This document shows, piece after piece, positions 3,716-33,856 of a stretch of 64,000 bases of DNA; within the stretch, counting starts at the first letter, position 1, and each line of letters opens with the position of its first letter. The stretch covers positions 4,290,523-4,354,522 of the forward strand of contig CAWHJG010000002.1 of assembly GCA_963829655.1 (NCBI GenBank), read 5' to 3'. The notes beneath the pieces are model-generated. The model was not told the DNA's origin and searched no databases. It saw only the letters and a list, made by a program, of their open reading frames with translations. A program made the translations under genes and the position numbers. The stretch comes from Pirellulales bacterium (GTDB lineage: Bacteria > Planctomycetota > Planctomycetia > Pirellulales > JALHPA01).

Positions 3716-4098
3716 AGAGCCCCGTAACCAAGAAGGCCGAGTAAAGCTGTATACGGTTCGGGCACGGGATGCACGCTCAAATTATCAATGTCCTGCGATG
3801 AATTCTCGCCGCCGGTTCGCGCAGCGAGTATGATGCGACTTTCGAATGGGGTCAGGCCTGGGACCAGGGCTCGATCGAATATGAGGTTCCCATCTACTGG
3901 CACAATTCTCGGGAAACGAACTTTCGAGACGCGTTTCGCTGGCAGCTCGACCTTCAATACAGCCTCAAGAGCTACTTCGACAAATTCTCGGTACGCAATT
4001 GTGACGCCACAATCTTGATATAATGCGAGTGCCACATTTGCCGTTTCATGCGGTTTGTACGCGAAAATGTATTCTTCGTTGACCGGTCTCTGGGTCAA
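3700..4098 (-). pseudogene. C-terminal fragment of a PEP-CTERM protein
   Basis: AARTGGENSSQDIDNLSVHPVPEPYTALLGLLGYGALG (VPEP at 3754-3765); no N-terminus and no basic tail. Confidence 0.6.
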
Positions 4099-4192
4099 AG
4101 GTATGTCGCGGCCGACAAAATGGACTGAAACTCCGATTTCTTTTTAAGACGCGGCCTCTATTGGCGTCTCAATAGATAGAGAACCGAGGCAG

Positions 4193-8122: not shown

Positions 8123-11100
8123 CTACATTTCGACCTCGACCTGGTGTTCCCGGCGATCGTCAACGAGCGTGACGAAGTCGTCGAACAACTCGGACCCATC
8201 CAGCGACAGGCGGCGGACCCTCGCGCCTGCGCCGCTGTGGTGGATGCTAATGTGGTAAAAAGTCTCGCGATAGCGATAGTGGATCTGGAACTGTTTCCAT
8301 GCCGCGGGCAGGCACGGCGTTAATGCGTAGCTTGTCCACCTCCACGTGCAGGCCCAGCAGCGACTCCACGATCAGGCGGTACATCCAGCCGGCCGATCCG
8401 GTGTACCACGTCCAGCCGCCCCGCCCGGTGTGCGGATCAACCCCGTAGACATCGGCCGCCACTACATACGGCTCCACGCGGTAGGTGGAAATCTCTGCCG
8501 GTGTCGCACCGTGCGAAATGGGATTGATCAGTGAGAATAACTCCCACGCGCGCTCATTGTCCCCCATCGCGGCCCTGGCCATCACGGTCCAAATGGCGCT
8601 ATGCGTGTACTGGCCGCCATTTTCTCGCACGCCAGGCACGTAGCCCTTGATGTAGCCGGGGTTGAGGTCCGATTTGTCGAACGGCGGATCGAGCAGCAGG
8701 ATCAACCGGGCATCCCGGCGGACGAGCCGACGATCGACGCTCTCCATCGCTACGGCCGTCCGCTGGTGCGTGCCGGCGCCCGAAAGAATCGACCAGCTTT
8801 GCGACTATCGCATCGATCTGGCATTCTTCATTCGTGGCGGAGCCCAGCGGCGTGCCGTCGTCGAAGTACGCCCGGCGATACCACTCGCCGTCCCAGCCGT
8901 GCTCCTCAATATTTCCCCGCAGTCGGCCGGCTTCGACCGAGTACCGGTCCGCGAGCACCATGTCGCCGCGCCGCCGCGCCAGGTCGGCGAACTGCGTGAG
9001 CACATGAAACAGGAAGAACGCCAGCCACACGCTCTCGCCCCGGCCCTGCTGGCCGACAAGGTTCATGCCGTCATTCCAGTCGCCGCACCCCATGAGCGGC
9101 AGTCCGTGGCTGCCAAAGCGCAAACCGTGTTCGAGTGCGCGGACTCCGTGCTCGTAGAGCGTGCCGATGTCATCCGACACTTGCGGCAGGTCGTAGTTCG
9201 ATTCCTCGTCGTCCCGCAAGGCGCGCGAAGTCAAGAAGGGGACGCGCTCCTCCAATACTCCAGTGTCACCGGTTATGCCGACATAGCGGCAAATGGCCAA
9301 GGGCAGCCAGAGGTAGTCGTCGGAGAAGTGCGTTCGCACGCCGCGCCCAACGGGCGGATGCCACCAGTGCTGCACATCACCTTCGCGAAATTGGCGGGCT
9401 GCGGCGCGCAGCAGGTGCTCGCGGAGCAATTGCGGCTGGGCATGCACCAGGGCCATCGCGTCCTGGAGTTGGTCGCGGAAACCGAACGCGCCGCCCGATT
9501 GATAGAATCCGGAGCGGGCCCACATGCGGCAGGCCAGTGTTTGATAAATGAGCCAGCCGTTGGCCAGGAAATTGACCGACGCGTCGGGCGTTTCCACATA
9601 GACCACGCCGAGCGTCCGGCTCCAGTAGTGCCACACGCCCTCGATCGCCCGATGGGCGCTGTCAACGCCGCGGAACTGCTGCGCAAGGTTCTTGGCTTCC
9701 GCGGCCCCGCGCGCGCATTCCGATCGTGAAGGTGATGATCCGCTCTTGCCCGTCTTCGAGCCTCAGCGGGGATTGAAAGGCCGCGCACGGATCGAATCCG
9801 GCACCGACGCGGCCCGAGAGTCGCACGCGCCGCAGGGCCGCGGGACTGGCCGGATTTCCATTGCGGCCCAGAAACTCCGCGCGGTCGCCGGTGAGAGTGC
9901 GGTTCGTTTCGCTGCAATTGAAGAACGCCACGCGATCCCCGAACTCCGGGCTATACACGTTGCGGGCAATAATCGCTCCGCTGGCCGGATCGGTCTCGGT
10001 AACCACGTGCATCAGCCACTTGCTGCGCGTATCGCCGAGCACCAGCTCCCAATAGGCGGTGACGGATAACTGCCGCGGCCGCCCCGAGCGGTTCGCGATC
10101 TTGAGCTTGTAGAATTTCACGGGCGCGTCGGTAGCGACATAGACACACAGTTCCGTAGTCAGGCCCTCTTCGGTGTAATCGAAAATGCTGTAGCCAAATC
10201 CGTGGCGGACGATATAGGTGTTTTGCCCGCGCGCCGGGAGCGGCGAGGGAGACCAGAAATGCCCCGTTTCCTCATCGCGCAGATAGATGGCTTCGCCACT
10301 AGGGTCGGAGACAGGGTCGTTGTGCCACGGGGTGAGGCGGAACTCATGGCTGTTTTCCGCCCATGTATAGGCTCTGCCCCCTTCCGAGACGACAGTGCCA
10401 AATTGCGAGTTGGCGATCACGTTCACCCACGGCGCAGGCGTCGTCTGGCCCGGCGGCCAGAATCGTCACGTATTCGCGGCCGTCGTGGCTGAATCCGCCT
10501 AGGCCGTTAAAAAATGCCAGATCGCGAGTAGGGGGCTCGTACGGGATTCTTCGGCTGGGGCCGGCCGAGGAGCGGCTTCAGTTGCGGGATCAAAACCTCC
10601 GTTCGCCCCCGGCGCTCGGTTTGTTCGGCCAGCGTTCCGCCGTCATCCATCAACACGATGCGCGCCACGGTCTGCAGCAGATCGCGATCTTCGTCCGACA
10701 TCTGTTCGCCGCGGCGGATAAAAATCCCGCCGGGCCGGTCGATGAGCGAGGCTTCGGGACTGGCGGCGACGAGATCGACGATGGCTTCCTGCAATGTCTG
10801 CCGATAAACCGAATCGTCTTCGTTCCAGATCACCAGATCGACAGCGAGGCCTTTCAGCCGCCAGTAGGCATGCGCCTGCACCGCTTGGCGCACCAGGGCG
10901 ATGCGCTCGTGATCACGAATCCGCACCAGCACGATCGGCAAGTCCCCCGAAATGCCATAGCCCCACAGCCCGGATTGTCCCCGCCTGTTGCGGCTCAGGA
11001 TGCTTGCCTTGGCTCGCCGCAGCGCCGAGGCATAGATGATTGAGCCGGCGAGGCGGCCATAAACCTGGGCATCCGCTTCGGAAGCACTAAGCTGCTGCAG

Positions 11101-14100
11101 CAGAATGTGGCCGTGCGTCCAGGCCAGGTCGAAGACACGATCGGCCAGGCTGGAGTCGCTGTACTTCTCGGTCAGCGCTTCGATACCTGCGCGCGACTCG
11201 GCCACACCGGTGACAATGTCGATCCGCACGGGCTCGTTCGGCTCTAGCAGCACGGTCTGGCGGATGCTGACGATCGGATCGAGCACGGATCCTTCACTGT
11301 TCGAAAGACTCGTCTTACCATCGAGAGCCGCGGGGAACGCGAGCGTCCGGTGCCGGCCGATAAAACGCATCCGGTCGGTCTCGTACGACGGCTCGCCAAG
11401 GGCGGCGCCTCGAACCGTCATCATGTGCGTCATCCAAGGCGGCAGCTCCTCGGCCGAGCGCGGCCGGCGGGTGCAATAAATCGCCTGACGGCTGCGAATC
11501 AGCTCGGTCTGCACGAACAGGTTGCTGAAGGCCGGATGCGCCTCGTCCTGGGCCTGGGTCGCCAGGACGACTTCCGCATAGCTGGTGATCTCGATGATGC
11601 GCGGCGTCTCTGAGCGATTCGTAAGCGTCAAGCGTCGCAGTTCAATGTCATCCTCGGGCGAGACGCTAATCTGGGTGTACGTCTCGATTTGGTCGTCGGC
11701 ACGGCGGAACTCAGCCCGCGACTGCGTGAAGATCGCCTCATACGCCTTGGCAGGCTTCGTCGTCGGCTGCCAGGTGTTGGACCACAGAGTGCCGCTTTCC
11801 GCATCTCGCAAATAGCAGAAGCTGCCGTAGCAATCCCGCGTCGCATCCTCGCGCCAACGCGTCACCGCCAGGTCGCGCCAGCGGCTATATCCGCCGCCGG
11901 CACTCGTTACGGCAACGTGATAACGGCCGTTGGAGAGCACATGGGCTTCTACCGCCGCGCTGTTGGGGTCGGTGAAGACGCGCATGCTGCCCGTTTCCTC
12001 CGCGGAAGCGAGGCGCGTGGCGCTGACTTCGCTCGCGTGCGGGACTACGGGCGCCACCGCTTTGGGAACGCGCTCTTGCAGGAGCAGGTCGGCCGCGCGC
12101 AGCATGGGATCGGCCAGAAAGCGGCGCTGCATAGGCTTGTCGAGCAGTAGATACGCCAGCGACAGCAGGACCATGCCTTGGTGATGCGCCATGAACTGCC
12201 GCACGGTGACTCGATCCGCACCCGGCGGCAACCGCGAAGGGGTGTAATCCACCGCTTCATAAAAGCCGTACGGGCCTTGCTGGCCGTCGGCGTCCAGACG
12301 CTCCAGATTGCGACAGGCCGCCTCCGGCGCCACCATCAACGCTAGTGCGCTCGCATAAGGCGCAACCACCAGGTCGTCGGCCAGGCCGCGCTTCAGCCCC
12401 AGCCCAGGCACGCCAAACGCCCGATATTGATAGGTCTTGTGCTGATCGAGGGCGTTATAGCCGGACTCGGACATTCCCCATGGTACGCCGCGTTGCCGGC
12501 CGTATTCGATCTGCCGGCGGACGACGGCGTGATAGGTGCGGTCGAGCAGCGTATTCTCATAGTTCGGCATCACCAATAGCGGCATCAAATACTCGAACAT
12601 CGACCCGCTCCAGCTCAAGAGCGCAGGCGCGCTGCCCGCGCTTGTCAACAGTCGGCCAAGTGCGAACCAATGCTCCTGACCGAAATTGCCCTGGGCGATG
12701 ACGATGAAACTGGCCAGTCGCGCTTCGGACGCTAGGAGATCGTAAAAGCTCGCATCGAGCCGCCGCTCGCTGACGTTGTAGCCAATGGCGAACAAATCAC
12801 GCGCCGAGTTGTACAGCAAACCGAAATCCATGTCGGCCAGGTCGCGGCACTGCGCAGCCACCTCCTCGAACATCCGGATCCGCGCGGCGGCATGCTCCGA
12901 AGAAACGACCAGTGCGGCTCTCAACTGCATGAGCCAGTCTTGCGTCTCGGCGGGCGATTGTCGCATCGCCGTATCGATCAGCGGCAGCGCCGCGCGCTCG
13001 CACGTCCGCGACATTCCGCAGCGTGGGAGCGGTGTCTAGACGATGGAGTGTCTCTCGCAACTGGTCCAACTGCTCGATTGGTTCGCCACCATTAAGCCCC
13101 CATATCCTGGACGGGGGAGCAGGCAGCGCCAGCCACGTAGCCAAGTGCAGCAAGTCGGCATGGTGGTCGATACAGGATCGCTCGTAGGCGCTTGCCCACC
13201 ACGCAAGCTCGGCGTTGCTGCTGCCCGCAGCGGCGGTCAATTCTGCGGCTGCCTTCCCCAGCCTGACCAGCAAGGCGTTGGCGGCGCGCGAGCGATGAGG
13301 GAGCCCGGTCGAGATCGTCGATTTGGCGCTCGATCTTGCGCAGCATGTCGGCACTGGCCGCCGGCACGTCCGTGCCACGGGCCACGTCCAGAAGCACCCG
13401 CAACGTATCGCGTAAGCCGCCGAACACTCGCGGCGGCAAGACGGGCGCCTCGCTCAGTTCCGCGCAGCCGCTGGCGAGCACCAGTAGATTGGCTGCCAGG
13501 TTGCCGCTATCGACCGTCGAAACATAGCGGGGGTGCAAGGGCGCGAGCGAACGGGTGTCGTACCAGTTGAAGAAGTGCCCCCGATAGCGCTCCATCCGCG
13601 AAAGTGATTCAAAGGTATGCTGGGTTCGCACTAGCAACTGCGCAGCCGAGCAATAGCCGAAATCGTAGGCCGCCAGATTAGCAAGTAGCGCCATGCCGAT
13701 GTTCGTTGGACTGGTGCGCGGCGCCACCACCAAATCAGGATTCCGCTGGATGTTGTCCGGTGGCAGCCAATTGTCTTCAGGCGTAACGAACGCTTCGAAG
13801 TACCGCCACGTCTTGCGCGAAAGCTTTTCCAGGAATTGCCGCTGATTCTCGGAGAGCCGCGGCGCCGGCTTGCGAATTGGTTGACTAAGCCACCAAGCGA
13901 TCAGCGGCGCCGCAATCCACGCGGCGATCAAAGGCCCCGCATAGAACAGTACCGGGGGATTGTAGTACGCGAGTGACAACAATACCGCGGCGGCGAGCGC
14001 GGGAGAGAAAGCCATTGAGCGGAACGTGGCCACCAGGCTTCCGTTGCCGCCTCGTTCAGAGTCGCTGGCCGTCTTCCATTCGAGCAGATGTCGCTTGGTC

Positions 14101-16884
14101 CAAGCGATGCGGAGCAGCGTGCGCACAATCGCATCGCTACTGATGTATGCCTCGTAAGGCAAAAAGATGATTAACAGCACACGCTGGGAAAGTGGCCGTC
14201 CCAAGGACTGCAGCGTGGCCCGCAAATGTATGGGCAGCGGCAAATCAACAGGCTTGTGAAGCAGATCTGCCGCAGCGTCGAACAGCGTAGGAAGCAGAAG
14301 CACGCTCGCCAGGAAAAGCAGTGAGGCCGCTGCCATGGTCGGCGAGACGAACCAAGACACAAGCAGCAGGAGGAGCATTGCCACCGGAGTCAGACTGCGG
14401 CGGAGATTGTCGAAAATCTTCCATCGCGACAAGGCAGAGATCGGGTTGCGGATGTATCGGCCGGACCGACCGGGCACCCAAGGCAGCAGCCAAGCGGCGA
14501 TCTGCCAATCCCCACGCATCCAACGATGTCGGCGGGCGATGTCGCCCGCGTACCGCGAAGGATGCTCTTCGTACAACGTCACATCGCTGAGCAGGGCGGA
14601 ACGAGAATATGCGCCCTCAATCAAGTCATGGCTGAGAATCGCGTTTTCGGGAAAGTCGCCGCAGCACTGCTCGAAGGAATCGACGTCGTAGATCCCCTTG
14701 CCAATGAACGACCCTTCGCCAAACAGATCCTGATACACGTCCGAGACGACCCGGGTGTACGGATCGACGCCCGTATCCCCAGCATACAGTTGCACGAAGC
14801 GCGACCGCCGAGCACTGGGCAGGCTGACGCCGACTCGCGGCTGCAGAATCGTGTAGCCATCGACGACGCGACAATTCTGTGCATCGAAGACAGGCCGATT
14901 GAGCCGATGTGCAAGCGTACCCACCATGAGGCGCGCCGCGTCGCGCGGCAACTGCGTGTCGGTGTCGAGCGTGATGACGTAGCGCACGCTCTGCAGGATC
15001 GCGACATCGCCGACGACTTCCGCGAAACGCCCATTCGCGCCGCGGAGCATGGCGTTCAGATCGGCCAGCTTTCCACGCTTGCGCTCGTAGCCCATCCAAA
15101 CGCCTTCCTGGGCATTCCAGCGGCGCGGGCGATGAAAGAGATAAAAGATGTCACTCCGAGACGGCATATTTCTCATTCAAGCGCTCGACGCCTTCGCGCG
15201 CCAGGCGGACGAGCTCTGCGTCGCCGGGCAGCGTCTCGGCCGTGGCATCAACAAAATCCGTTAATAGCGCAAAGTGCAGGCACGGGTCCCGATTGGCAAG
15301 ATACCGCACTTCAAGCCCGTCCAGCACATGTTCGATTCCGGCAGCGCTCGTGAGCATGGTGGGCACGGCCACGAGCGTGCGATGCTCTGGCGGAATTCCT
15401 TGCTCAAAATCCAAACGCGGCAACGATTGGGGACTGAGCAATTGAGTCGCCAGCCAGTTGACGAGTTCCAGTCCCAGGCCCGAGGCGCAGATCATCGCCG
15501 GCACAACCAGCATGAGCATCGCCGGCCAGCCAGTATCGAGCTGTTGGACAGAGCGCAAAAAAATCAGCGTCGCCGCGAGCGTGACCAGACCGATGGCAGA
15601 AAGGTAACACGGTGAGCGGAAGCCGCCGCCGCAACTTGTCGATCACGACCGCCCGAGAGAGCCGCATTTCGGCCACACGTTCCAGCACCGGACGGCCGCG
15701 ATCGACCAAGTAAATAACCTACGTGAGCTGCGCGGTCATTGGGCTTCTCGCGGGCATGACCTTCGGCCAGTTGCACTGCCTTGAGCGCCACGTCGTACTC
15801 GGTCAGGTGACTGCGGCGGGCAATGCCTTCGACGGCGTGTCGGTAGCGGTCACGGGTCGCGAAATCCATTTTCGCATAAAGGCCCGACGGGATCCGCTGC
15901 CAGCGTCTGCTCGACAAGGCTCTGCTCGCCGACGAATTGGCGCCAATCGTTGGAATTCAAAAACCGCAGGCTGCTGATGCTATTGCCGATCGAAACCTGG
16001 TCGGCCGCCTGAGCTTGTCCCTCGGCGCGAACCAGTTCCTCGGTCGTCATGCCTTCGTCGGCTAAGCGATGCTCAAGCCAGCTATTGGCGAAGGCGAAGT
16101 TCGGGTTTTGCCCCTGCAAATGACGCGTTAGCTCTGCCAGGAAAGCCCCGGAGAAAGGCGGGTTGGCGCGGGCCATATCCGCGAGCACCAGGATCAGGTC
16201 CGTGGGCTTCTGCTCGACAACCCGGACCATGCGATCCGCCCAATCACCGGCCAAATCGCGGTCGCGGCGCCTCGCTGCAATCCGAACCGCGACGCGACGA
16301 AGGTTTTCGATCAGCGCCAGACGCAGCATCAGCGGCAGCGCCCATAGCTCGCCAAGCTTGAGCGGCTCGACGGATTGATACGATGTGATGAAGCCGTTGA
16401 GGCTGGCAGAATCGACGCGCCCATCGACGTGAGCGATCAGCTCGAGGGCGATGCCATAAGCACGCGGAAGGTTTGCGGCAGGCCCGCTCGCCAGGCGAGG
16501 CAGTTCGCGGCTAAAGGAGGGCGGCAAGAGCCGCCTGATCGCGCGGATTTGCTCTTCGATCAGGTAGAAATTGTCAAGCAGCCATTCGGCGGCCGGCTCG
16601 ATGCGGCGGTTTTGATCGGCCGCCGCCGTCACGAGATCGTAGGTCTCAATCAGCACGCGCTCGTTGTCATCAAGCCGCCGCAATAACGTGTCGCGTACCC
16701 GGCCCGCGGCCAATTGGTGCGACGCCGCGATTGCCTTCGCGTGCCGCTCCAACTGATCGATACTGAATAGTTCTGCCCGTAGCGGCTGTTGGTCCGCGGG
16801 TTCGGTGAATGACGACGCCGGATCAGCGGACTGGCGCCAGGACATCAGCCGGAGGAACTTTTTCGAGATGGCCGGAACATGCAC
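8123..16884 (-). CDS. ndvB: Cyclic beta-1,2-glucan synthase / GH94 phosphorylase (NdvB/ChvB-like), about 10 frameshifts
   Basis: Consecutive ORFs with [103 protein letters not shown]. Stop TAG at 8123. Confidence 0.9.
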
Positions 16885-18437: not shown

Positions 18438-18791
18438 CTATTGGCGCAGAGGGTTATCCACGCCCCACTCCCAAGCCGGCTTCACAACGTCGGCCTCGGG
18501 AAACAGGCGTTGCGCCTTCTGGAAGTCCGATTCGTCGTCAGTGGATAGAACCACGAACTGCGCTCCCTCCTCACCAAAAACCCAAATCAGACTGGGTGCC
18601 TCAACGGATTGACCGGGCTGAGTATGGATAATGGCGTTCAGCTCGCCACCCTCACCCACGAAGTCGCGCCTATCCCGAATCCAGTTGAGGCTCGATGCTA
18701 CCCATCCAGCCAAAAGCGCGACCAATGTCACCACCACGAACAGCGTTCGTAAACTAAAGCGAAACCAGCGTCGTCTCGGCTTTTCGTGCAT
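18438..18791 (-). CDS. Planctomycete-type small membrane protein (RRWFRFSLRTL N-terminus)
   Basis: Motif plus TM helix; paralog of 30556..30894; leaderless promoter GCTACAATACCCGC-ATG. Confidence 0.75.
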   Translation of the reverse strand: MHEKPRRRWFRFSLRTLFVVVTLVALLAGWVASSLNWIRDRRDFVGEGGELNAIIHTQPGQSVEAPSLIWVFGEEGAQFVVLSTDDESDFQKAQRLFPEADVVKPAWEWGVDNPLRQ

Positions 18792-18940
18792 GCGGGTATT
18801 GTAGCGGGCGGCTTACTCGTCGTCGGGTTCGTCCGCCGCTGCACGATTACGCGCAGGATTATGTCGTCCGGCACAAAGCTGCGCCACCGCCCAAACCCCC
18901 GCCCCTCCGAGATTCCTTCCTTAATACCTATTCAATTTTG

Positions 18941-18970
18941 TTGACACTACGCCAGGGCGACTGTTAGGTT
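18941..18970 (+). promoter_or_regulatory. Sigma70-type promoter of the PEP-CTERM polyprotein gene
   Basis: TTGACA(18941)-18 nt-TAGGTT(18965) with extended TG; ~400 nt leader to ATG 19376. Confidence 0.55.
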
Positions 18971-19166
18971 ATTCGCCGGTGGGCCACCGGCCGCGTTGGG
19001 CATAACAGGCCGGCTCTTGAATTGGTGTGGTTTGACCGCAACGCTGCGTCAGGGCCGCGCGTGCGGGTTCGTTAGCGGTTTCAATCTTGCTTCCCGCTCT
19101 TTACCGCGCCTGCTCGGCACTCATCGATTTCCTGCGCATTCTCCTCGCGTGGGCGAGATCCTCATT

Positions 19167-19295
19167 CCCTGGCCTGAGCTTGGCCGAAGGCCCTGTCCTG
19201 AGCTTGCCTGCCATGAGCTTGTCGAACCGGTCGAAGGACGCATTCGCTCGCCTGAGCACCGCCGAAGGCCCTGGCCTGACCTCGGTCGAAGGCCC
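19167..19295. repeat. Cluster of REP-like CCTGAG-N5/6-CGAAGG repeats (4 copies plus 1 nested)
   Basis: cctgagcttggccgaagg 19173; cctgagcttg[..catgagcttgtcgaa..]gtcgaagg 19197; cctgagcaccgccgaagg 19251; cctgacctcggtcgaagg 19275. Confidence 0.75.
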
Positions 19296-19375
19296 CATTT
19301 CCTCTTCATTCATCCGTCCGTCAAGGCGCCCTCCGCCTTTGCATCATCGTTTCATACTCCTTCCTGGAGCTCGTC

Positions 19376-21290
19376 ATGCACGCCCTCATCCGCGTTACGG
19401 CCGCGCCGGGCCAATCCCGCCGCCGCATGCTTCCGCTGGCTCTTTCGCTCGCGGCACTCCTACTGTTTTCGCACGCGCCCTCGCTTCCCGCCGCGATCTT
19501 CCGCTGGGATAACCAGGCGCTCATTCCCGGCACCGCGCTCATCACTCCCGGCCCCGGCGTCCAGCTTGATCACCGCGATCTGGCCTTTGCCAACCTGTCG
19601 AACGTCAATCTCACCGGCGCAAACTTCAATTCCAGCAACTTGAGCAATGCACTTCTTCAGAGCACGACTCTCACCTCAGTGGACTTTTCGAGTGCGCAGA
19701 TCGGCGGAGCAAACTTCGAATTTGCAACCTTTCGTGGTCTCACCGCGGCGCAAATCTACAGCACAGCCAGTTATCAGGAAAAGAATCTCGCATCCATACG
19801 TTTCGCGAACAACAACCTGACCGGCTGGGATTTTGCGCCAAATTCTGACAGGCGTTTCGTTCCTCAGCGCCACGCTAACGGGCGTCGATCTCACGGGCGC
19901 CGAGATTGGTGGAACTTCATTGACCGGCACCACGTCGCGCGGATTCACGAAGGAACAGCTCTATAGCACCGCCAGCTATCTGCGAAAGGATCTTTCGTCT
20001 GTAGGCCTGGGAAGCAACGACCTCTCGGGATGGGATTTCGGCGGCTTTAATCTGACGCGCACCAGCTTCAACGGGAGTACGTTATTAAATACGAACTTCG
20101 CCGATGCAATCGTCGATCGAGGGATATTTGACCGTGCCACGCCGCGCGGCTTCAGCTACGAACAGCTCGCAAGCACTGCCACCTTTCAACAGAGGAATCT
20201 CGTCGGCATGAGTTTCTCGGAAAACGATCTGACCGGTTGGAATTTCAGCGTTCAGAATTTGAGACAGTCGCAGATTTCGCAATCGAATCTCACCAGAGCA
20301 AATTTCTCGGACGCGGATCTGACCAATGTCTCATTCGTTTTGAGTTCGGGTATCGATACCGCCGATTTTTCCGACGCCATCGTAAACGGCGCACATTTCG
20401 CGCTAACAACTCTTACGAAGGAGCAGCTCTATACCACCGCCAGCTACAAGCAAAAAGATCTCAGCCGAACAATTTTGCAAAGCATGGATTTGACGGCCGG
20501 AGACCTAAGCGGACAGAACCTTTCGAGCGCAAATCTCGGCGGTGCGCGACTCACAGGCGCAGACTTCACCGGTGCCATCATCCAAGGCGTGGCGATTAAC
20601 ACGACCTCAGGCAACTTTACGGCGGCGCAGCTCTATAGCACCGCCAGCCACCAACAAAAGAATCTCAAGGGCATTGCGCTAAGCGGTGATTTGTCCGGAT
20701 GGGATTTCAGTGGGCAGAATCTTATCCAGTCCAATCTTGGCGAAACTGTATTGACCAACGCAAACTTCTCCGAGGCCGACGTCCGAAGTGGCACGGGTTT
20801 ACCGTCCTCTCCCACGACCATTCTCCGAAATACCATCCGGCCCGATGGCAGAATTCGCGGCTTAGAATTGACCGGCACTGAGTCGTTGTTGGTCCGCGAC
20901 TTTGAGTTGGCAATCAACGTGACTCAGGGCTTTGCCATGTCGCAACAAGGAACTCTTAACCTGCAACTAGCCGACGCCTCGTGGGGTTCCAAAATCACCT
21001 TCACGCCAAGCCTGATTCCCGATCTCGGCGGAGTCTTAGAGCTCAGCTTTGCCGCGTCTGCCGATCTCGCGACACCTGGCGCGGTCTTCGATTTGTTCGA
21101 TTGGCCATCCCCACTCGACGCGGCAAATCGCTTCGACCGGATAGAGGTACCGACTGGATCAGAGTGGGATTTGACCCAGCTCTATACCACCGGCGAAGTC
21201 CGCCTCCTCGCCATCCCGGAGCCGGCTTCCATCGCGCTTTTCGCAATTGCCCTAATACCACTGTTCATTCTGCGTCGTTCCCGCCGCCTG
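19376..21290 (+). other. Polyprotein module 1: pentapeptide-repeat PEP-CTERM protein
   Basis: ANLSNVNLTGANF, repeated QLYSTASY, IPEPASIALFAIALIPLFILRRSRR. Confidence 0.85.
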
Positions 21291-24200
21291 GTTCGTACAC
21301 TGGCTCTTTCACTCGCGGCACTCCTACTGTTTTCGCACACGCCCTCGCTCCGCGCCGCCATTTTTCGTTGGGATAACCAGGCGCTGATCCCCGGCACCGC
21401 GCTCATCATTCCCGGCCCCGGCGTCCAACTGGATCACCGCGACCTGGACTTCGCCAACCTCTCGAACGTCAATCTTACCCGCGCAAACTTCAATTCCAGC
21501 AACTTGAGCAATGCACTTTTTGAGCGCTCAGACCTCGGTTCCGCTGACTTTTCCGAAGCGCAAATCGGCGGAGCAAATTTCTCTTTTACCACGCTTCGTG
21601 GTTTAACCGCGGCGCAAATTTACAGCACAGCCAGTTATCGGGATAAGAATCTCACTTCGGTGCGTTTCCCGAACAACGATCTGACCGGCTGGAACTTCCG
21701 CGGCGTCAACTTGTCAGGCGCTTCGTTCCTCGAAACCAGGCTAACGGGCGTCGATCTGACAGACGCCGAGATTGCCGGCAGCAGCTCTCCCGCCCGGTCT
21801 ACTACATTGACTGGCACTACATCTCGCGGATTTACCAAGGAGCAGCTTTCCAGCACCGCCAGCTATCGGCGGAAAGACCTTTCGTTCGTTGTGCTGGGTA
21901 ACAACGATCTCTCCGGCTGGAACTTCGGCGGCTTCAATCTGACTCGCACCAGCTTCAGTGGGAGTACGTTGCTAAATACGAACTTCGCCAATGCAATCAT
22001 CGATCGCGGAACGTTCAGCCGTACTACCCCTGGCGGCTTCACCCACGAACAGCTCGCAAGCACTGCCAACTTTCAACAGTCGAACCTCGTAGCGATGCAT
22101 TTCTCAGAGAATGATCTCACCCGCTGGAATTTTAGCGGTCAAAACTTGACTTTCACGAGTTTTGAACAATCGAATCTCACCAACGTCATCTTTTCTGGCG
22201 CGAATCTGACCAGCACTCACTTCGCTCACAGCTTCGGCATCGACACTGCCGACTTTTCCGATGCCATCATAAATGGTGCAGGTTTCACGTTAACAACGTT
22301 TACGAAGGAGCAGCTCTATACCACCGCCAGTTACAAACAGAAGGACCTTAGCCGAATCAATTTTGGTGCTGTTGACTTCAGAGGCGTGGACTTAACCAGC
22401 CAGAACTTTTTCAACACTAACCTGTCGCTTACCAACCTGTCTGCGTCTGACCTTCGCCGCGCGACAGAAATTGTGCTCACCGGTGCAGTACTTCGCAACG
22501 CAATTCTGCCTGACGGCTCGATTCCAGGCTTGGAACTCAGAAATACCGAGAGACTGGTTGTGCGTGACGTTGACCTGGCCATCAATGTTTCAACCGGCTT
22601 CTCCATGGCCGACCAGGGAACACTGGACCTGCAATTCGCAGACGCCTCGTGGGGTTCCAAAATCACCTTCACGCCAAGCTTAACCCCCGACCTCGGCGGC
22701 GTCCTTGCGCTCAGTTTCGCGCCGTCCGCCGATCTTGCTGCGATGCCTGGAACGGTCTTCGATCTGTTCGATTGGCCGGCGCCGCTTAATGCGGCCAACC
22801 GCTTCGACCGAATCGACACACCCGCTGGATCAGAGTGGGATTTGAGCAACCTCTACACCACCGGCGAAGTCCGGATTCTGGCAATCCCCGAGCCGTCCTC
22901 CTTCGCGCTAACGGCCGTTTGCGCGCTGGCACTCTGCATCATATGGCGAACAAAACGCAAAGGGTCAGTCGCCACCGCCGTTGCATGTCTGCTCGCAGTA
23001 TTGTGCCCTGCGACCCTCCTTGCCGAATCCATCACTGTCGAGCAAGGCAATCAGGTTGTGCGCAGCGGTAACATAACGGTGAATGCCACCGAACAAATCA
23101 CGGTGCGAGATCCCGGCAGCAAACTTGAAATCCAGGACTTTCTCACTTTTGTAAGCGGGATACTTCGCGTGGAGTCGAGTGGCACGCTAAGCACGAATAC
23201 AGGCGGCACGTCACAAAGCCGGCTGAGCGGCGACGGCGCGCGTGCGTTCGTTGTTGGTCCCGGTTCCATGTGGACAGTCGCCGGTCCACTATCCATCGGA
23301 GACCTCTATGAGGGTCATTTAACGATTTCCAATGGAGGAATAGTCGAAAGCGGCCTTCGAGGGAGTTGGTCACGTGTTATTGGCGGGTTGGGCGACCGAG
23401 CTGCCGCAGCATCAACGGCGACCGTGGAAGGTTCGGGTTCTAAGTGGATTGTGCACGCCAATTTGGAGATCGGCGATAGCGGCGAGTCTCATCTTTTCAT
23501 ACGCGACGGCGGCCATGTCACCAGTGGCCTTAACGGTGACCGGACTCGAATCGTGGCGGCGGGACTCGAGCGCGGCGAGCCCCCATCAACGGCTACTGTC
23601 ATCGGCGTCGGTTCCGCGTGGGACATTCACGGTGACTTCTCGGTGGCGAGCTTTGGAAACGCATCTCTCAAAATTCTGAATGGGGGACGTGTGACGTCAG
23701 GAATTGGCGGCCGTACCGACCTTGGTGGATCGGCAACCCGACCCGGCTCCGCAACGGTCGAGGGCGCCAACTCAATTTGGACGATCGAAGGCGCGTTTCA
23801 AATGGGAGTGGGCGACGTGCCTGCGACAATGCGTGTAGCCAATGGGGGATTGCTAAGCGTGGGAACGACCTTTTTCGGCGGGACACGAAGCGTCTTGGAG
23901 CTTGCCGGTGGGAGTGTGGAAGCCGCCGAGATTGTCATGAATGGTGAAATTCGTGGTGGTGGAATGATTGTCGCAGACCTCACGAGTCAAAGCAGATTAG
24001 CTGTCGGCAATTCCGCGGGTCAGTTAAGTATCGGAGGTGACTTTACGCAACTGGCTGGCGCTTCGCTTGCGATGGAGCTGGCTGGCCGAGGCGGAGTGCC
24101 CGGGATCGATTTTGATCAACTTGTCGTGCGCGACGCTGCCTTGTTGCGCGGACGAATTGATGTCACGCTCCTTAACAACTTCGCCCCCGCGAAGGGGGAC

Positions 24201-26547
24201 TCATTCAATCTAATCCGCTACGGTTCGTTGCAATTCGCCACACCCGGAGTTCCGCCGCCGCTTAACCTGCCGTCGCTCACCGGCGATCTCTTATGGTCCT
24301 CAAACTTCGGACCACAAGCGCTGACCATCACCGTCGTCCCCGAGCCGAGCACGTGGATTCTCGCGGCGTTTGCGCTCGTCGGATTTCTGGCATCGAGCTG
24401 GTATGCAATACTCCGACGCAGGTCTCTCTGGTGTGGCCGCTCGGTGTCGCTGATTCTCATCGGGTTACCTAGCGTCCTTTCAATGGCAACCGCCGCAAAC
24501 GGCCAAACGCTGCGCGCAGGCAGTCGCTACCAGCGGACTAACCGTACCGTTGTATCTCACAGCGCCGCCGGGCGACATGAATCGTCTATTCATTGTCGAA
24601 AAGGGGCTTGCAGATCAATTTCAGAATGGAACTGGCACGATTCGCGTATTTGACCTGACAACGAACACGCTGCTGCCGACGCCGTACCTATCGATACCCG
24701 TTTCGGCCGAACGCGAACGCGGTCTCTTGGGAATGGCTTTCGACCCGAACTTCAGTATTAATGGTTGGTTCTACACATATCACACCCAATCTGGCGCTTC
24801 GAACGACCCGAACCGTGGCGATATCGTCGTGTCGCGATACACCGCCAATGGCAGCCCCTTGACGTCGAACAGTGCCAATGTGGCCAGCGCACAAACACTG
24901 TTGACTATTGAACACAGCTCGCATACCGATCACAACGGTGGTTGGATTGGTTTCCGCCCCAACGACAGCAACCGGCTTTACATTGCGACTGGCGACGCCG
25001 GTCTGAGCAATGATCAGTCGAACAATGCTCAGAATCCTAACGTGCTGCTCGGAAAAATGCTGCGAGTGGACGTGAGCGGACCGGGCGACTACACAATTCC
25101 CGCCGATAACGCCTCCGGTGGTTTGCCTGAGATTTACATGCTTGGCCTCCGCAATCCGTGGCGCAATAGCTTCGACCGACAGACAAGCGATTTCTATATT
25201 GCCGATGTTGGCGAAAGGAATTGGGAGGAAGTCAATTTTCAGGCCGGTGGTGGCACGACTGCACCTTCCGGCGGCGAAAACTACGGTTGGCGTGCGCGCG
25301 AGGGAAAACACGACAACGCCGCTGTTGACGACCTGCCCCCCGCCGGCGCAATCGACCCCATTTACGAATACAATCACAACGTTGGCGGGTCCATCACTGG
25401 TGGATATGTCTATCGTGGCAGCAAAGTCAATGGTCTTCAGGGTGACTACATCTTCGGCGATTACACGGACGGGCGATTCTGGACCGGTGAAGTTAGCGGC
25501 AACAGTTTGATCAATATCGTTGAACGGACGTCTCAGCTTGGCCCTAACGGCGGTGGCCAAACGTGGGCTGGACGGATTGCGTCGTTCGGCGAAGGCGCAA
25601 ACGGGGAACTCTACATCGTGGGGCTCAACGGCGCGGTGTATCGCATCATTCCCGAACCCGGGACTTGGGCTCTCGCGGCTTTGGCCCTCGTCGGTCTGAC
25701 ATTGGGGCTCCGCCGCAAGCGGCATACGCTACCCATCATGAATCGAACCACTGTCATTGCTCTCGCGCTTGCTTCAATCCTCGCCCTGACCAATGCCACG
25801 TCGCGCGCCGACCTCACCTTCGACCTCCGCGCCGTCTCCGGCTCTCAAATCATCATTCACGGCCCCAAATCCGTCGCCGTCAGCCACAACAGCGTCGGCG
25901 GCTGGATCGACTTTGAGCTGCATGCGCTCGTTACAGGGGACAATGCAATTTCGACCGATGATGGAATGCAGAACTTCATTGGTAGCATGTTGAGCACGCA
26001 CGCCGGGCGCGGTGCCGTCATCGGCAACATGATCAATGCCGGTGAAATCGCTCCAAGAGTTGGCCGCGGCGTCATTTCGCCTTTCGACGGTCGTGCCCAC
26101 CAGAACGGGACGATCCAGAACCTCGATGATGACCCCGAGCTTGAAATTGGCGGAACGAGCCACCTTGCCGAGTCCGGATTAATTGCTGCGCGGACCGGCA
26201 CTGGATCAGCTTGGTACCGCGGCACTGCGGAAGTAGCCGATTTTCCGCTCTATCGTTTTACACTACCAATCGAATCCGTCCCGGCCGATTCGCTGGCCGA
26301 CATGACTCGCGTGCATTTCCATATCCCATTTCACCCGGGTGCTTTCCTCTGGGCCCAGGATAGCCTGTCGTATTCGGCATCGACTTTCGCACAGCGTACC
26401 GGCGCGATGTTGGTCAACGAGGGTGTCCTCATCCACACCGCGCAAACCCCAGAGGAGCTCGCCGCCATACCCGAACCAGGCACGTGCCTACTCGCACTGC
26501 TTGGCGCGGTCAGTGCCGGCTGGTTTGCCAAACGTAGACGTTTTTAA
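19376..26547 (+). CDS. Five-module PEP-CTERM polyprotein (~2390 aa; frameshifts ~19837 and ~24515)
   Basis: ORFs 19376..19966, 19833..24653 and 24550..26547. PEP motifs at 21213, 22884, 24336, 25648, 26467; the first four are followed in frame by TM, basic cluster and a new signal peptide. SD GGAG before ATG. Confidence 0.85.
21291..22962 (+). other. Polyprotein module 2: pentapeptide-repeat PEP-CTERM protein (duplicate of module 1)
   Basis: Signal LALSLAALLLFSHTPSLRA-AIFRWDN nearly identical to module 1; IPEPSSFALTAVCALALCIIWRTKRK. Confidence 0.85.
22963..24425 (+). other. Polyprotein module 3: T5SS/PEP-CTERM-associated beta-strand repeat protein
   Basis: Repeats such as VVGPGSMWTV..LSIG..GHLTISNGGIVES and VEGSGSKW..LEIG..LFIRDGGHV; VPEPSTWILAAFALVGF..RRR. 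Confidence 0.8.
24426..25722 (+). other. Polyprotein module 4: PQQ-dependent sugar dehydrogenase-like (GSDH beta-propeller)
   Basis: RLFIVEKG, ERGLLGMAFDPNF, HNGGWIGF, LYIATGDAG, GLRNPWRNSFD, SITGGYVYRG, SFGEGANGELY; IPEPGTWALAAL..RRKR. Confidence 0.85.
25723..26547 (+). other. Polyprotein module 5: uncharacterised PEP-CTERM protein
   Basis: Signal MNRTTVIALALASILALTNATSRA-DLTFDL; terminal IPEPGTCLLALLGAVSAGWFAKRRRF-stop. Confidence 0.8.
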
Positions 26548-26637
26548 GTCACTGCCGCGCCCCCACACCTTGCCCAAGCTGGCCGCCATCGCCCGCATGC
26601 GTTGTGACTAACAGTGTGTTGACCGAATGGCGGCCAA

Positions 26638-26803
26638 TTAGAAGAAAAACCCGCAGACCCAAGCGATGACCAACCCCAGGATGATCGGCACGAAAATCTC
26701 GCGGAAGGAAATGACAAGGTAAATTGGGAGTTGCGCCCACTTCCCGAACCGCCACCACTGTGGCGTGTCGTCAGTGTCGGGCACTGTTCTGCTTCTCGTC
26801 CAT
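26638..26803 (-). CDS. Small membrane protein (~55 aa, one frameshift), leaderless
   Basis: Same GCTACAATACCCGCATG 17-mer as at 18791; C-terminal TM IFVPIILGLVIAWVCGFFF. Confidence 0.5.
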
Positions 26804-26918
26804 GCGGGTATTGTAGCCAATCGCGACGCCGCGATTTGCGCGCCTCGCTCAACTGCGGCTTATTTTGCTAAGCTAATTCGACGGACAATCGAAAACTTTG
26901 GCGAGTAAGGCGGAGGCG

Positions 26919-27437
26919 ATGCGATTCTCTGTTCGCTGGCTATTGATCTTCATTCTGGCAATTGCGGTTGGCGTGGTTGCTCTGTTGAACGCGAATGAGT
27001 ACTGGGCGGGGGCTGCACGAAGCACGCTCATTCTGCTTCTGTCTCTAGCAACTGCCATCGCCTCGTTATCGACAGGATCAAGACGAGCGTTTTGGATCGG
27101 TTTTGCTGTCTTCGGCTGGATTCAGTTCGCAAGCGTAGGGTTTGCCAAGAACCTAGAGCGCGAAACGACCAGCGGCTACCTGCTCACCGATCAAGGGATC
27201 GAATGGCTGCACTCAAAGCTTGTGCGGAATGTCGAAATCCTGGTGCCGATCTTTAATGCCGGGGTGCAAGTTCGGACACAGCCAGCAATCGTGCGGCGGC
27301 CGCACATCGATTACTTTAACGTCGTGGCCCGTTGTCTCCTTGTCGCATTTCTTGGAACCCTGGGCGGTTATGTTGCCACGTGGATTTTCGGGCGCAGTAA
27401 TCCGCTTGGGGCTACTCTTGCACCGCGGCAGTCATGA
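26919..27437 (+). CDS. Planctomycete-type membrane protein (MRFSVRWLL N-terminus)
   Basis: SD GGAGG; 4 TM segments; RRAFWIGFAVFGW motif. Confidence 0.75.
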   Translation: MRFSVRWLLIFILAIAVGVVALLNANEYWAGAARSTLILLLSLATAIASLSTGSRRAFWIGFAVFGWIQFASVGFAKNLERETTSGYLLTDQGIEWLHSKLVRNVEILVPIFNAGVQVRTQPAIVRRPHIDYFNVVARCLLVAFLGTLGGYVATWIFGRSNPLGATLAPRQS

Positions 27438-31322: not shown

Positions 31323-31523
31323 ATGGCTAAGCGTAAGACAGCAAAGCGAGGAAGCGGCAAACGGGAGCGAATCAACACAGGCCGAGACGCGCGATTTGTG
31401 CGCCGCGACGGCGCTGGGCGATTCAACGAAAGCGACGACGTTGGCCGCTCACTGACCATTGACCGCCGCAAGAAGGCCAAGAAGAAGGTCCGTTCCGGTT
31501 ACGGCGACAAAGGCGACCGCTAG
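31323..31523 (+). CDS. Small basic conserved hypothetical protein
   Basis: FVRRDGAGRFNESDDVGRSL..DRR..AK....GYGDKGD; SD GGAG. Confidence 0.7.
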   Translation: MAKRKTAKRGSGKRERINTGRDARFVRRDGAGRFNESDDVGRSLTIDRRKKAKKKVRSGYGDKGDR

Positions 31524-32449
31524 CTGATAAGGTGCGCGTGCCGTAGTCCCGTCGCTTCCCAAGATGCAAACTTGATGAATACCCGGACTGCGGGCTTGAA
31601 CCATTGGCACGATTGAGTCTCGTCCTCAGTCCTGCCTTCGCCCCATGAGCTGTCTTTCGCCATGGGAATCGAATCGAAAAAGCGGCGCTTCGTGGCGAGC
31701 TTAGCAAGTCGAGCCGCCAAGGTTTCCCGTGCCTCTTTGACCAAACCGCCGCGTACTTTGCCGGCGTAATGGAAGCGTCTGCCCTCGAATTGGCCGACGA
31801 TGAGCGCCTCCATTTCACCGATCACACCGCCCACGAGGAACTCGTGCTGTTGACCAACGCGGAATTTCACCCAAGCGGGATTTCGCTTGCCTGCCGTGTA
31901 CTTCGAGTGGCGGCGCTTAGCCACGATGCCTTCCAATTGATGCTCTTGGACAGCGCGTAAGACAGCTTGTGCGTCGCCGTCGAGCGTCCTGGAAAAGTTC
32001 ACGTCGCTTCCGGACAGCAACTCGCTCAGCCGTTCGCGGCGCTCAACCAACTCCCGACTGACGAGTGATCGGCCGCCCAGCCGAAGCAAGTCAAAACCGA
32101 AGTACCGATAGACCGGCGTGCATCCACCAGAGCCGCGCATCAATCGAAATGATGGTTTGCCGTGGTGGTCTAGCGCAACCAGCTCCCCGTCCAGTACGGT
32201 TGAGCGGACCGGCAACTCGGAAATGTGCTGGGCCACCGAGGGAAAGCGTGCGGTTAAGTTGTGGCCGTTGCGTGAAAACAGGATCACGCGGCTGCCATCC
32301 TTTACCGCGATACATCGGTAGCCGTCCCACTTCACCTCGTACTGCCACTTGTCACCGACAGGCAACTGGCGGGCGGAAGAGAGCAGTATCGGAGGGATGA
32401 AGCCGGACAGACGAGTGACCACTTGCAGATTCCAAAATCGGTAGGACAA
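31520..32449 (-). CDS. ligD: ATP-dependent DNA ligase (LigD/LigC ligase domain)
   Basis: YEVKWDGYR, VLDGELVA, FDLL, LEGIVAKRRHSKY, WVKFR. Confidence 0.85.
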   Translation of the reverse strand: MSYRFWNLQVVTRLSGFIPPILLSSARQLPVGDKWQYEVKWDGYRCIAVKDGSRVILFSRNGHNLTARFPSVAQHISELPVRSTVLDGELVALDHHGKPSFRLMRGSGGCTPVYRYFGFDLLRLGGRSLVSRELVERRERLSELLSGSDVNFSRTLDGDAQAVLRAVQEHQLEGIVAKRRHSKYTAGKRNPAWVKFRVGQQHEFLVGGVIGEMEALIVGQFEGRRFHYAGKVRGGLVKEARETLAARLAKLATKRRFFDSIPMAKDSSWGEGRTEDETQSCQWFKPAVRVFIKFASWEATGLRHAHLIS

Positions 32450-32478: not shown

Positions 32479-32685
32479 TCAAGGGGCGTCAGCTGATCCG
32501 TTCCGCACGCAACTCAATCGTCGCCAACGCTTTACCGTCCGCTTGAACTGGTCCAAGACAATCTCGGTCACTTCCTCCTTCGTGGCGTGCTCTGGCAGCC
32601 ACTGCTCGTTCGCGAACCGCTCTAACTGTTCGCGGATGTTGAGCGGGTCGGAGCCGATGCAGTGGGCGGTGAAACGGAAGGGCAT
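32479..32685 (-). CDS. Small hypothetical protein overlapping the tail of the HAF-repeat gene
   Basis: MPFRFTAHCIGSDPLNIREQLERFANEQW..; protein-like composition only. Confidence 0.35.
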   Translation of the reverse strand: MPFRFTAHCIGSDPLNIREQLERFANEQWLPEHATKEEVTEIVLDQFKRTVKRWRRLSCVRNGSADAP

Positions 32686-33856
32686 GCGAAGTCTCTTTGC
32701 CAAACCGTCCGAAGCGCCAAAGGCAGACCACTCCGAACACAAGTCCCAATAACAGCATCGTCGGGGGCTCTGGAATTGGTGTCAGAAGAAATGCGCGCTG
32801 CTCCCCGTTGAATAAGCCACCGCCGGCGATCTGACCAAGGTCGTTAATTGCAGTGGCTTGCAGCAATATCCATCCCGCGCCAGACGAATCCAGCAGGTCA
32901 TTCAGGTCGTACATGCGATCAAAGTAAACGAATGCATGACCCTGTCCTGGTACCGCAAGGAGGCTTCCTCCCACTACAACGCCCGCTTCGTTCACCGCAA
33001 ATGCATTGCTGGACTGGCCCCCGAGTGTCCCCAGATCATCAGTGGCAGGGTTGATGTCAGCCCGCGGCGCAGTTCGGAAGGCGTGTGTTGCAGTGTCGCC
33101 GGTGATAGCCGAATGCCCGACCACTTGTCCTGCATCGTTTATATCTGTTGCTGATGTCGCGGTACCGCCCAGGCTTCCAATGTCATCGTTGATAAGATTG
33201 ATTGGGCTTCTCGGGGCGGTGCGAAACGCAATCAGTCGAGGACTAACAAACGCCTGGCCAACGACTTCACCAGAATTATTGATCCCACTTGGCTCTGTTT
33301 GTGGTGGCCCCAGGTTGCACCCGGGAGTGATTGGTTGGTGCGGTCCCGTTCGGAAACCGTAGCGGACGAAATTGCTATCTTGGGATGAACCGACCACTTC
33401 TCCTAACTCGTTAATGTCGGCACCACCGCTGACGTCTCCAAATGAGCCTAGGTCATCCGTTGCTGGATTCACAGGAGCGTTTGGCGTGGTTCTATAAGCG
33501 TGAGCGGGGATCGTTCTCAGAACACCAGTGGCTTCACCAAGGTCGTTAACAGCAGTGGCCCGCCTGGATGCCGCGCGAAGGTCGTCGGTGAGGGGGTTGA
33601 TTGGTGAGTTGGGCGCGGTACGAAAGCCTCGTTCGTTGAACGGATCAGTGCCGCTATACCCGACAACCTGACCAAGATTGTTTAAGCCGAGGGCCCAGCT
33701 CGCCGGATGCCCCAACGTTCCCAAGTTCAAGACGCTGTAGGTAGGTGGCTGAGCCGACACGCTTGCAACGAGCAGGGGGAGCACAAAGAAAAGTGCCAAC
33801 ACACTTTGACGTGCAATCGGTCCATTCGACGGTGCAATTTCGTTGTGGAAGGGCAT
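32489..33856 (-). CDS. HAF-repeat PEP-CTERM protein (tail reads through into unrelated sequence)
   Basis: Signal peptide, LGTLG..A.GLNNLGQVVG repeats, IPEPPTMLLLGLVFGVVCLWRFGR. Confidence 0.85.
   Translation of the reverse strand: MPFHNEIAPSNGPIARQSVLALFFVLPLLVASVSAQPPTYSVLNLGTLGHPASWALGLNNLGQVVGYSGTDPFNERGFRTAPNSPINPLTDDLRAASRRATAVNDLGEATGVLRTIPAHAYRTTPNAPVNPATDDLGSFGDVSGGADINELGEVVGSSQDSNFVRYGFRTGPHQPITPGCNLGPPQTEPSGINNSGEVVGQAFVSPRLIAFRTAPRSPINLINDDIGSLGGTATSATDINDAGQVVGHSAITGDTATHAFRTAPRADINPATDDLGTLGGQSSNAFAVNEAGVVVGGSLLAVPGQGHAFVYFDRMYDLNDLLDSSGAGWILLQATAINDLGQIAGGGLFNGEQRAFLLTPIPEPPTMLLLGLVFGVVCLWRFGRFGKETSHALPFHRPLHRLRPAQHPRTVRAVRERAVAARARHEGGSDRDCLGPVQADGKALATIELRAERIS

Follow-up and report, generated by a model that had tools for sequence, protein, structure and literature searches.

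A plus-strand locus in a Pirellulales genome encodes five proteins with PEP-CTERM sorting signals that follow one another head to tail. The locus lies at 19376-26547 of the 64,000-nucleotide stretch analysed here (the window; GenBank assembly GCA_963829655.1, contig CAWHJG010000002.1, positions 4,290,523 to 4,354,522). We consider it likely that the five proteins are fused into one secretory multi-cargo precursor, which, judging from its sequence features, is most likely cut by signal peptidase I and exosortase. At each of four junctions (J1 to J4), a PEP motif, a transmembrane helix and a basic cluster lead in frame into a second hydrophobic segment that resembles a signal peptide. The original prediction for this DNA had described such a chain. 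It has held for J1 and J2 as one translational unit, for the junction grammar, for the presence of the enzyme genes and for a wide spread of the architecture; two frameshifts, very likely assembly errors, interrupt the frame.

Three overlapping plus-strand open reading frames (ORFs) cover the locus, as read from the ORF list and a three-frame translation. Its parts are as follows.

19376-19966, plus strand: ORF, frame 1
19833-24653, plus strand: ORF, frame 2, 1606 aa, spanning J1 to J3
24550-26547, plus strand: ORF, frame 0, 665 aa, spanning J4, stop at 26545-26547
19376-19492, plus strand: N-terminal signal peptide of module 1, 39 aa, ending in ...SLPA before AIFRWDNQ
19493-21212, plus strand: module 1 cargo, pentapeptide repeats and a C-terminal domain (Pfam PF00805, PF13599), with the break from frame 1 to frame 2 at about 19833-19845
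21213-21287, plus strand: PEP-CTERM 1, internal (J1), with IPEP, transmembrane helix and RRSRR; TIGR02595 at aa 461-485 of the 1606-aa ORF
21288-21356, plus strand: internal signal-peptide-like segment 2 (LVRTLALSLAALLLFSHTPSLRA), without in-frame ATG, GTG or TTG
21357-22883, plus strand: module 2 cargo, pentapeptide repeats and a C-terminal domain, paralogue of module 1
22884-22961, plus strand: PEP-CTERM 2, internal (J2), read in the translation
22962-23024, plus strand: internal signal-peptide-like segment 3 (GSVATAVACLLAVLCPATLLA), without in-frame start codon and with no nearby stop in any frame
23025-24335, plus strand: module 3 cargo, T5SS/PEP-CTERM-associated repeats (TIGR04393, 4 stretches, E 8.4e-31)
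24336-24422, plus strand: PEP-CTERM 3, internal (J3); PF07589 at aa 1502-1520 of the 1606-aa ORF
24423-24503, plus strand: internal signal-peptide-like segment 4, with in-frame GTG at 24444 and other-frame TGA at 24449-24451
24504-24520, plus strand: frameshift 2, from frame 2 to frame 0, one base extra or two missing
24517-25647, plus strand: module 4 cargo, GSDH-like beta-propeller (PF07995, E 1.2e-27)
25648-25722, plus strand: PEP-CTERM 4, internal (J4); PF07589 and TIGR02595 at about aa 367-391 of the 665-aa ORF
25723-25809, plus strand: 15-nt spacer and signal peptide 5 (MNRTTVIALALASILALTNATSRA), with its own ATG at 25738 (MNRTTV...)
25810-26466, plus strand: module 5 cargo, conserved family without Pfam match, mature N-terminus DLTFDLRAVSGSQ
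26467-26547, plus strand: PEP-CTERM 5, the sole terminal one, stop codon at 26545-26547

All five motifs read in the translation combine a PEP motif, a hydrophobic helix of about 14-20 residues and a basic cluster, and a profile hidden Markov model (HMM) scan places internal motifs above the curated cut-offs of Pfam PF07589 and NCBIfam TIGR02595, with matches at internal positions of both long ORFs and at the C-terminus of the 665-aa one. The four junctions that had been predicted to be open in frame (21213, 22884, 24336 and 25648) are so, their peptides agree letter for letter with the translation, and only the fifth PEP-CTERM ends in a stop. According to Haft et al. 2006 (PMC1569441), such a signal is defined as C-terminal and lies a median of 3 residues ahead of the stop. 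Four of the five PEP-CTERMs depart from this extreme placement (usually <10 residues to the stop): 274 to >1100 in-frame residues follow the internal ones, with 76 after J3 up to the frameshift. The predicted cargo types also hold, with PF00805, TIGR04393 and PF07995 matches and a fifth module outside any Pfam family. The pentapeptide repeats (PF00805 E 4.1e-52, 9 stretches) have the A(D/N)LXX pattern of that family; their matches to the Qnr, PipB and HetL models all lie far below the NCBIfam cut-offs, and membership in those families is therefore not claimed. The GSDH match spans profile positions 22-322 of 332, which places module 4 in PF07995, and its score for the PQQ-dehydrogenase subfamily TIGR03606 is far under the cut-off. 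A promoter and terminator scan of 18500-27200 returned 3 promoter-like and 12 terminator-like sites, as compared with 3.8 and 10.3 in shuffled sequence, and none at any junction.

The case for a single translational unit is clearest at J1 and J2. Neither contains an in-frame ATG, GTG or TTG from the basic cluster to the next hydrophobic h-region, so modules 2 and 3 are only possible as extensions of the module before them. In both, the other two frames are stop-free over >30 codons, and without a stop in any frame no single-base assembly error could create these fusions.

The same arrangement recurs elsewhere in the genome. A six-frame motif scan of the whole genome found 121 PEP-CTERM-like signals with at least 80 open codons upstream, and in 11 of them the same frame stays open through a hydrophobic segment and for 100 or more codons beyond it. 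One of these 11 (APEPK...) appears spurious, and J3 is absent from them because a frameshift lies downstream of it. Examples of fusion outside the window are the following.

C2:138686, C2:2559688 and C2:4922393, plus strand: fused PEP-CTERM signals
C2:2265516 and C2:243846, minus strand: fused PEP-CTERM signals

Fused, overlapping and unfused forms of the same gene pairs coexist. At about C2:3.835 Mb a paralogous pentapeptide gene shares an ATGA overlap with the module-5-like gene downstream of it, and at about C2:1.099 Mb a T5SS-repeat gene and a module-5-like gene are separated by a stop and a spacer.

The segments that follow the internal PEP-CTERMs closely resemble true signal peptides. 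By inspection they have the positive n-region, hydrophobic h-region and small residues at -3 and -1 of Sec signal peptides, with apparent sites (slash) at ...SLRA/A, ...TLLA/E, ...ATA/A or ...ANG/Q, and ...SRA/D; they depart from the standard in location, since in four of the five modules the segment is internal and not N-terminal. The N-terminal signal peptide of module 1 and the segment after J1 are nearly identical in their h- and c-regions, and both share LALSLAALLLFSH(A/T)PSL(P/R)A followed by AIFRWDNQ. A parallel is found within the chain protein P0002, where N-terminal ...SSRA/QILRWDN corresponds to internal ...AEA/QVLRWDN. For module 5 we aligned 11 homologues, most of them stand-alone proteins of 257-296 aa and four of them paralogues from this genome; one homologue, P0161, is a two-module chain itself. 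Their methionine-led N-terminal signal peptides match the internal one at J4 column for column, before (D/A)LTFDLRAVSGSQ.

The enzymes required by such a precursor are encoded in the same genome. The search for exosortase that the original prediction called for gave three PF09721 matches, and signal peptidase I genes are present as well.

C2:1487418-1488170: exosortase (PF09721)
C3:82574-83326: exosortase (PF09721)
C3:90877-91642: exosortase (PF09721), split by a frameshift

From these features a processing route can be proposed. The N-terminal signal peptide would carry module 1 through Sec, and its PEP-CTERM helix, crossing from outside to inside, would act as a stop-transfer segment that leaves the Arg/Lys cluster in the cytoplasm, as expected from the positive-inside rule. 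The next hydrophobic segment, crossing from inside to outside, would then re-enter the translocon as an internal signal peptide, with the same basic cluster as its n-region. This double use of the cluster was part of the original prediction: the cluster does lie between two hydrophobic segments, the second with signal-peptide features, and the doubling itself is what we infer. Signal peptidase I would cut past A-x-A on the periplasmic face and free the N-terminus of the next module, and exosortase, acting at the PEP motif at the membrane surface, would remove each PEP-CTERM anchor. A hairpin peptide of about 45-60 residues would thus stay in the membrane for every junction.

Chains of this kind are present in independent assemblies. 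Two genomes of the same order (G008, 97% complete in 110 contigs, and G037, 99% complete in 60), each with an exosortase, contain single ORFs of 1432, 1629, 2468 and 3221 aa, along with two more cut by the locus ends, and these chain ORFs have 3-4 PEP-CTERM signals each and the same junction grammar. Two of the chains, L011 and L012, are orthologous, with 88% amino-acid identity. Their ratio of nonsynonymous to synonymous substitution (Ka/Ks) is 0.27 overall and 0.36 and 0.31 over the two junctions, and all indels between them are whole codons; the junctions are under purifying selection between these two chains. With a junction profile (A1) built from 17 junctions, the two genomes gave 23 stop-free matches reaching the signal-peptide half, 13 of which were themselves in the profile, and 8 with an internal stop, among the 150 matches listed of 283.

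Across a phylum sample of 401 genomes, in which 16 candidates were scored per genome and 150 of 913 matches were listed, further stop-free full-length matches were found in other families, and seven loci from other families were confirmed to have the same junctions (L026-L031 and L036). A count of chain-bearing genomes from this survey (134 of 401 with a match) was rejected, as the matches fall mostly in the PEP-CTERM half of the profile. The loci differ in how far the fusion has gone. The control locus L033 (G399:C5) has an in-frame stop, a 5-codon spacer and an ATG; L029 is a fusion that retains 'RRRR-T-MKKL...' with a Shine-Dalgarno-like motif; and L014, L015 and L016 are fusions without any start. 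From their sequences, L033, L011-L016 and L029 may represent successive stages in the evolution of obligate chains out of tandem genes.

Searches of public proteins extend this spread. Searches of the kind suggested with the original prediction, for internal PEP-CTERM signals followed by a signal peptide, returned matches in the genome, in its relatives and among public proteins. A word-indexed search found 13 proteins, each called as one protein, with up to three junctions; one of 1485 aa is labelled by NCBI 'MAG: pentapeptide repeat-containing protein [Pirellulales bacterium]', and others are labelled Planctomycetales and Chthoniobacterales. A profile search of 1.84 billion cluster representatives yielded 4090 with E <= 0.001 and 135 with E <= 1e-10. 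Among the 150 matches listed of these 4090, 147 have at least one regex-verified junction (285 junctions in total, with a maximum of nine in a 2500-aa protein), counts for which the profile and the regex derive from the counted feature itself. A relative of one match is encoded in the finished genome of the betaproteobacterium Roseateles chitinivorans P36 (NZ_CP192577.1, locus L038), as a 1271-aa ORF with an ordinary N-terminal signal peptide and one in-frame junction without ATG, GTG or TTG. The layout is thus beyond chance, with recognised domains in the downstream frames and recurrence in this genome, in relatives and in public proteins.

As a separate observation, a second junction at the Roseateles locus is +1 out of frame within the basic cluster (about nt 3950-4170 of the locus), with the signal-like segment and the next module running on in the other frame; the homologous junction of P0021 is in frame. 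Possible causes of the shift are recoding, an error in sequencing and a genuine frameshift mutation.

The junction grammar was measured on 282 junctions from 146 public proteins, a set that leaves out the protein of the window. The first helix has a median length of 16 residues (14-19), and the loop one of 10 residues (interquartile range 7-14). Charged residues in the loop are almost all basic, with medians of 5 for Arg+Lys and 0 for Asp+Glu. Alternating hydrophobic segments and basic loops would look the same in a stable polytopic inner-membrane protein, whose hairpins serve as permanent anchors for periplasmic domains and whose internal sites stay uncut. Such a protein would also agree with a remark by Haft et al. 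2006 (PMC1569441), that a few PEP-CTERM copies have long tails and are possibly non-functional. However, 218 of the 282 junctions (77%) have A-x-A after the second hydrophobic segment, as compared with 26% of random windows from the same proteins, and the register from site to mature N-terminus matches that of stand-alone paralogues. In addition, internal PEP-CTERMs are conserved as well as terminal ones: with an HMM trained on half of the terminal PEP-CTERMs of these proteins, internal copies score a median of 38.6 bits (n=294) and held-out terminal copies 39.8 (n=59; Mann-Whitney p 0.26), a result at odds with the view put forward in 2006 that copies in unusual positions are degenerate. We therefore regard a permanently anchored protein as quite improbable.

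Several observations nevertheless count against a precursor that is made whole and cut, in addition to the circularity of the public counts. The predicted cleavage sites rest on A-x-A and homology, and the putative exosortase substrate would be a PEP-CTERM that continues into a second helix. The five-module chain of the window is not conserved in same-family relatives, which hold pentapeptide and GSDH-like PEP-CTERM proteins as stand-alone genes. J3 has its in-frame GTG and, 9 codons past the basic cluster, the TGA in another frame; J4 keeps its own ATG after the 15-nt spacer; and in an unfused paralogous gene pair of the same genome the spacer measures 14 nt, with stop and start overlapping as ATGA. 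A possible start codon is present in 18 of the 31 junctions with DNA at hand, some with a Shine-Dalgarno-like motif, and internal initiation may contribute at such junctions.

Taken at their strongest, the start codons would mean that the chains are tandem genes whose stops were lost by chance, with internal modules made mainly from their own starts and the fusion a tolerated by-product without a role. This would also fit the 72 of 282 public junctions with a methionine within the loop or where the h-region begins, the unfused forms (the ATGA overlap, the paralogues with stop and spacer, L033 and the 8 stop-containing matches in G008 and G037) and the lack of conserved chain composition at the family level. 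It fails at J1 and J2, at the 13 of 31 DNA junctions without ATG, GTG or TTG and at the 210 of 282 public junctions without methionine, where no usable start is found and modules are only possible as fusions. Between-species purifying selection, moreover, keeps junctions in frame, and a ribosome coming from upstream reads through even where an internal start exists, so that the fused chain is made and must be handled. Fusion as a by-product without a role is therefore an unlikely explanation, and a processed precursor remains the reading we prefer.

The quality of the assembly bears on a further explanation, in which the locus is an artefact or a decaying pseudogene array, separate genes having been joined or split by a long-read assembly with many errors. 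The genome (6.32 Mb, 3 contigs, 79% complete by marker genes) has fragmented essential genes: rpoB is broken into 3 parts, rpoC into 8 and one copy of dnaE into 6 or more, which gives an indel rate of about 1 per kb.

C2:671943-679831: rpoB and rpoC, split by frameshifts
C2:3653228-3656312: dnaE, split by frameshifts

The locus has two such breaks. Frameshift 1, at about 19833-19845, lies about 150 codons into module 1, as located by alignment of module 1 with module 2 (1300 of 1981 columns identical), and frameshift 2, at about 24504-24520, lies just past the fourth signal-like segment and ahead of the GSDH domain. Since a cell with rpoC in eight pieces would not be viable, the breaks in essential genes are assembly indels, and the two frameshifts in the locus are accordingly not evidence of decay; both are most likely assembly errors. 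At about one indel error per kb, frameshifts or 'pseudogenes' anywhere in this genome need read-level confirmation. That the frame breaks lie in GCGC runs and off the junctions had been noticed in the original prediction. GCGC is indeed found at both, and at one exosortase-gene frameshift, but its presence is uninformative: with GCGC at a frequency of one per 93 nt, its candidacy as a systematic error motif was dropped, given 8 of 17 rpoB, rpoC and dnaE frameshift windows against a background of 28% per 30 nt.

One indel could be enough to undo the fusion at J3, and likewise at J4; for J4, the 14-nt spacer of the paralogous pair as compared with its 15 nt indicates that a one-base assembly error could have made the fusion. 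The estimated risk of artefact is about 3-5% per junction, which amounts to low odds, with the lower figure following from about 1 error per kb over a 20-30-nt target. Reads from the sequencing run examined do not help here: one soil-metagenome DNA run (word share 0.10) has no coverage of the junctions or frameshifts, its 10 short contig pieces, 90-97% alike, are uninformative on assembly or expression, and there is no RNA run among the sequencing runs listed for this locus. Against an artefact, no single indel explains J1 or J2, with no stop in any frame and no start nearby, and the same architecture is shared by thousands of public proteins, a finished genome and short-contig assemblies of 97-99% completeness. 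An artefact or pseudogene is excluded for J1, J2 and the phenomenon at large, with a small risk for J3 and J4, and as an account of the whole locus it is very improbable. The frame is continuous from J1 to J3 and again through J4; the description of five modules in one frame depends on the two frameshifts being assembly errors and on J3 and J4 not being single-indel artefacts.

Chains probably arose through loss of stop codons in closely spaced tandem PEP-CTERM genes, and the topological complementarity of the two signals makes such a fusion cheap. Decay of the internal start, as at J1 and J2, would then make the fusion obligatory. The modules and their order are those of tandem PEP-CTERM genes, and the chain differs from them in having no stops and, at J1 and J2, no start.

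Each module resembles a standard PEP-CTERM/exosortase protein in its PEP motif, transmembrane helix, basic cluster and signal peptide, and the cargo, for example the TIGR04393 repeats, is typical as well. Unlike the standard, four of the five signals are internal, run into a signal peptide and still score like terminal ones. In flavivirus and pestivirus envelope polyproteins, stop-transfer anchors alternate with internal signals, and host signal peptidase is expected to cut on the far side of the membrane. The chains share this alternation of anchors and internal signal sequences in one polypeptide, but they are encoded on a bacterial chromosome and would use the Sec and LepB machinery; their anchors are removable sorting signals for a second enzyme, exosortase, and their modules are unrelated cargo also found as stand-alone genes. 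A bacterial precedent is reportedly offered by the Bradyrhizobium japonicum FbcH cytochrome b/c1 precursor, in which two proteins are said to be split at an internal signal-peptide-like sequence. Unlike the chains, FbcH has one junction, joins two subunits of one complex, has no sorting tag and is not modular or widespread; our literature search found no paper using the name fbcH.

No description of chained or internal PEP-CTERM signals was found by full-text search of the openly searchable literature. Term searches within PMC1569441, PMC3237569 and bioRxiv 10.1101/2023.06.07.544157 likewise gave none, bar the 2006 remark on long tails. The original supposition that nothing of the kind had been described in bacteria thus stands for PEP-CTERM proteins and gives way, in principle, to the reported case of FbcH. 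We put at somewhat better than even the chance that exosortase bacteria widely use a protein-level 'operon', a Sec precursor of two to ten or more unrelated surface proteins, threaded in and out of the inner membrane by PEP-CTERM/signal-peptide hairpins and cut by signal peptidase I and exosortase, and that these precursors form an unrecognised polyprotein class comprising thousands of protein families in Planctomycetota, Verrucomicrobiota and Betaproteobacteria.

If this is so, PEP-CTERM is not strictly a C-terminal signal, thousands of multi-protein precursors are wrongly annotated as single giant proteins, and bacterial signal peptidase I routinely cuts internal signal peptides of natural substrates. 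Several surface proteins would be delivered by one initiation and one membrane-targeting event, with implications for stoichiometry, for the way fast-folding beta-helical cargo is exported co-translationally and for the evolution of tandem arrays. For exosortase research the chains would provide a natural test substrate, as each junction specifies the neo-N-terminus and the residual hairpin peptide to be expected, and a start-less junction is available in a named strain with a finished genome, Roseateles chitinivorans P36.

Module 5 belongs to a family (P0159-P0169) of mostly stand-alone proteins, composed of a signal peptide, a domain and a PEP-CTERM, whose genes often lie just downstream of another PEP-CTERM gene. 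Its AlphaFold2 model has a predicted local distance difference test (pLDDT) score of 62.7, a mediocre value, as compared with 34-47 for the other four models. Foldseek returned no PDB match with E <= 0.001 for it, the best being cohesin modules at E 1.3e-3, and dockerin PF00404 is among the precomputed annotations of the related chain proteins P0002, P0003 and P0008. As a lead only, a cohesin-dockerin-like pairing on the cell surface might be considered.

Three other regions of the window, all on the minus strand, were also annotated. At 8599-15176, GH94 catalytic, supersandwich and GT2 domains extend across at least three consecutive ORFs, which appear to belong to a single large gene of cyclic beta-1,2-glucan-synthase-like type, interrupted by frameshifts of the assembly. 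The region at 32489-33856 encodes a PEP-CTERM protein with a weak DUF3466 match and a PEP motif near 32776, in which 71 in-frame residues without a signal-like segment follow the basic cluster; given the assembly quality, this tail may be extended by a frameshift. The region at 31520-32449 encodes an ATP-dependent DNA ligase of the LigD-like type (PF01068 and PF04679), unrelated to the chain.

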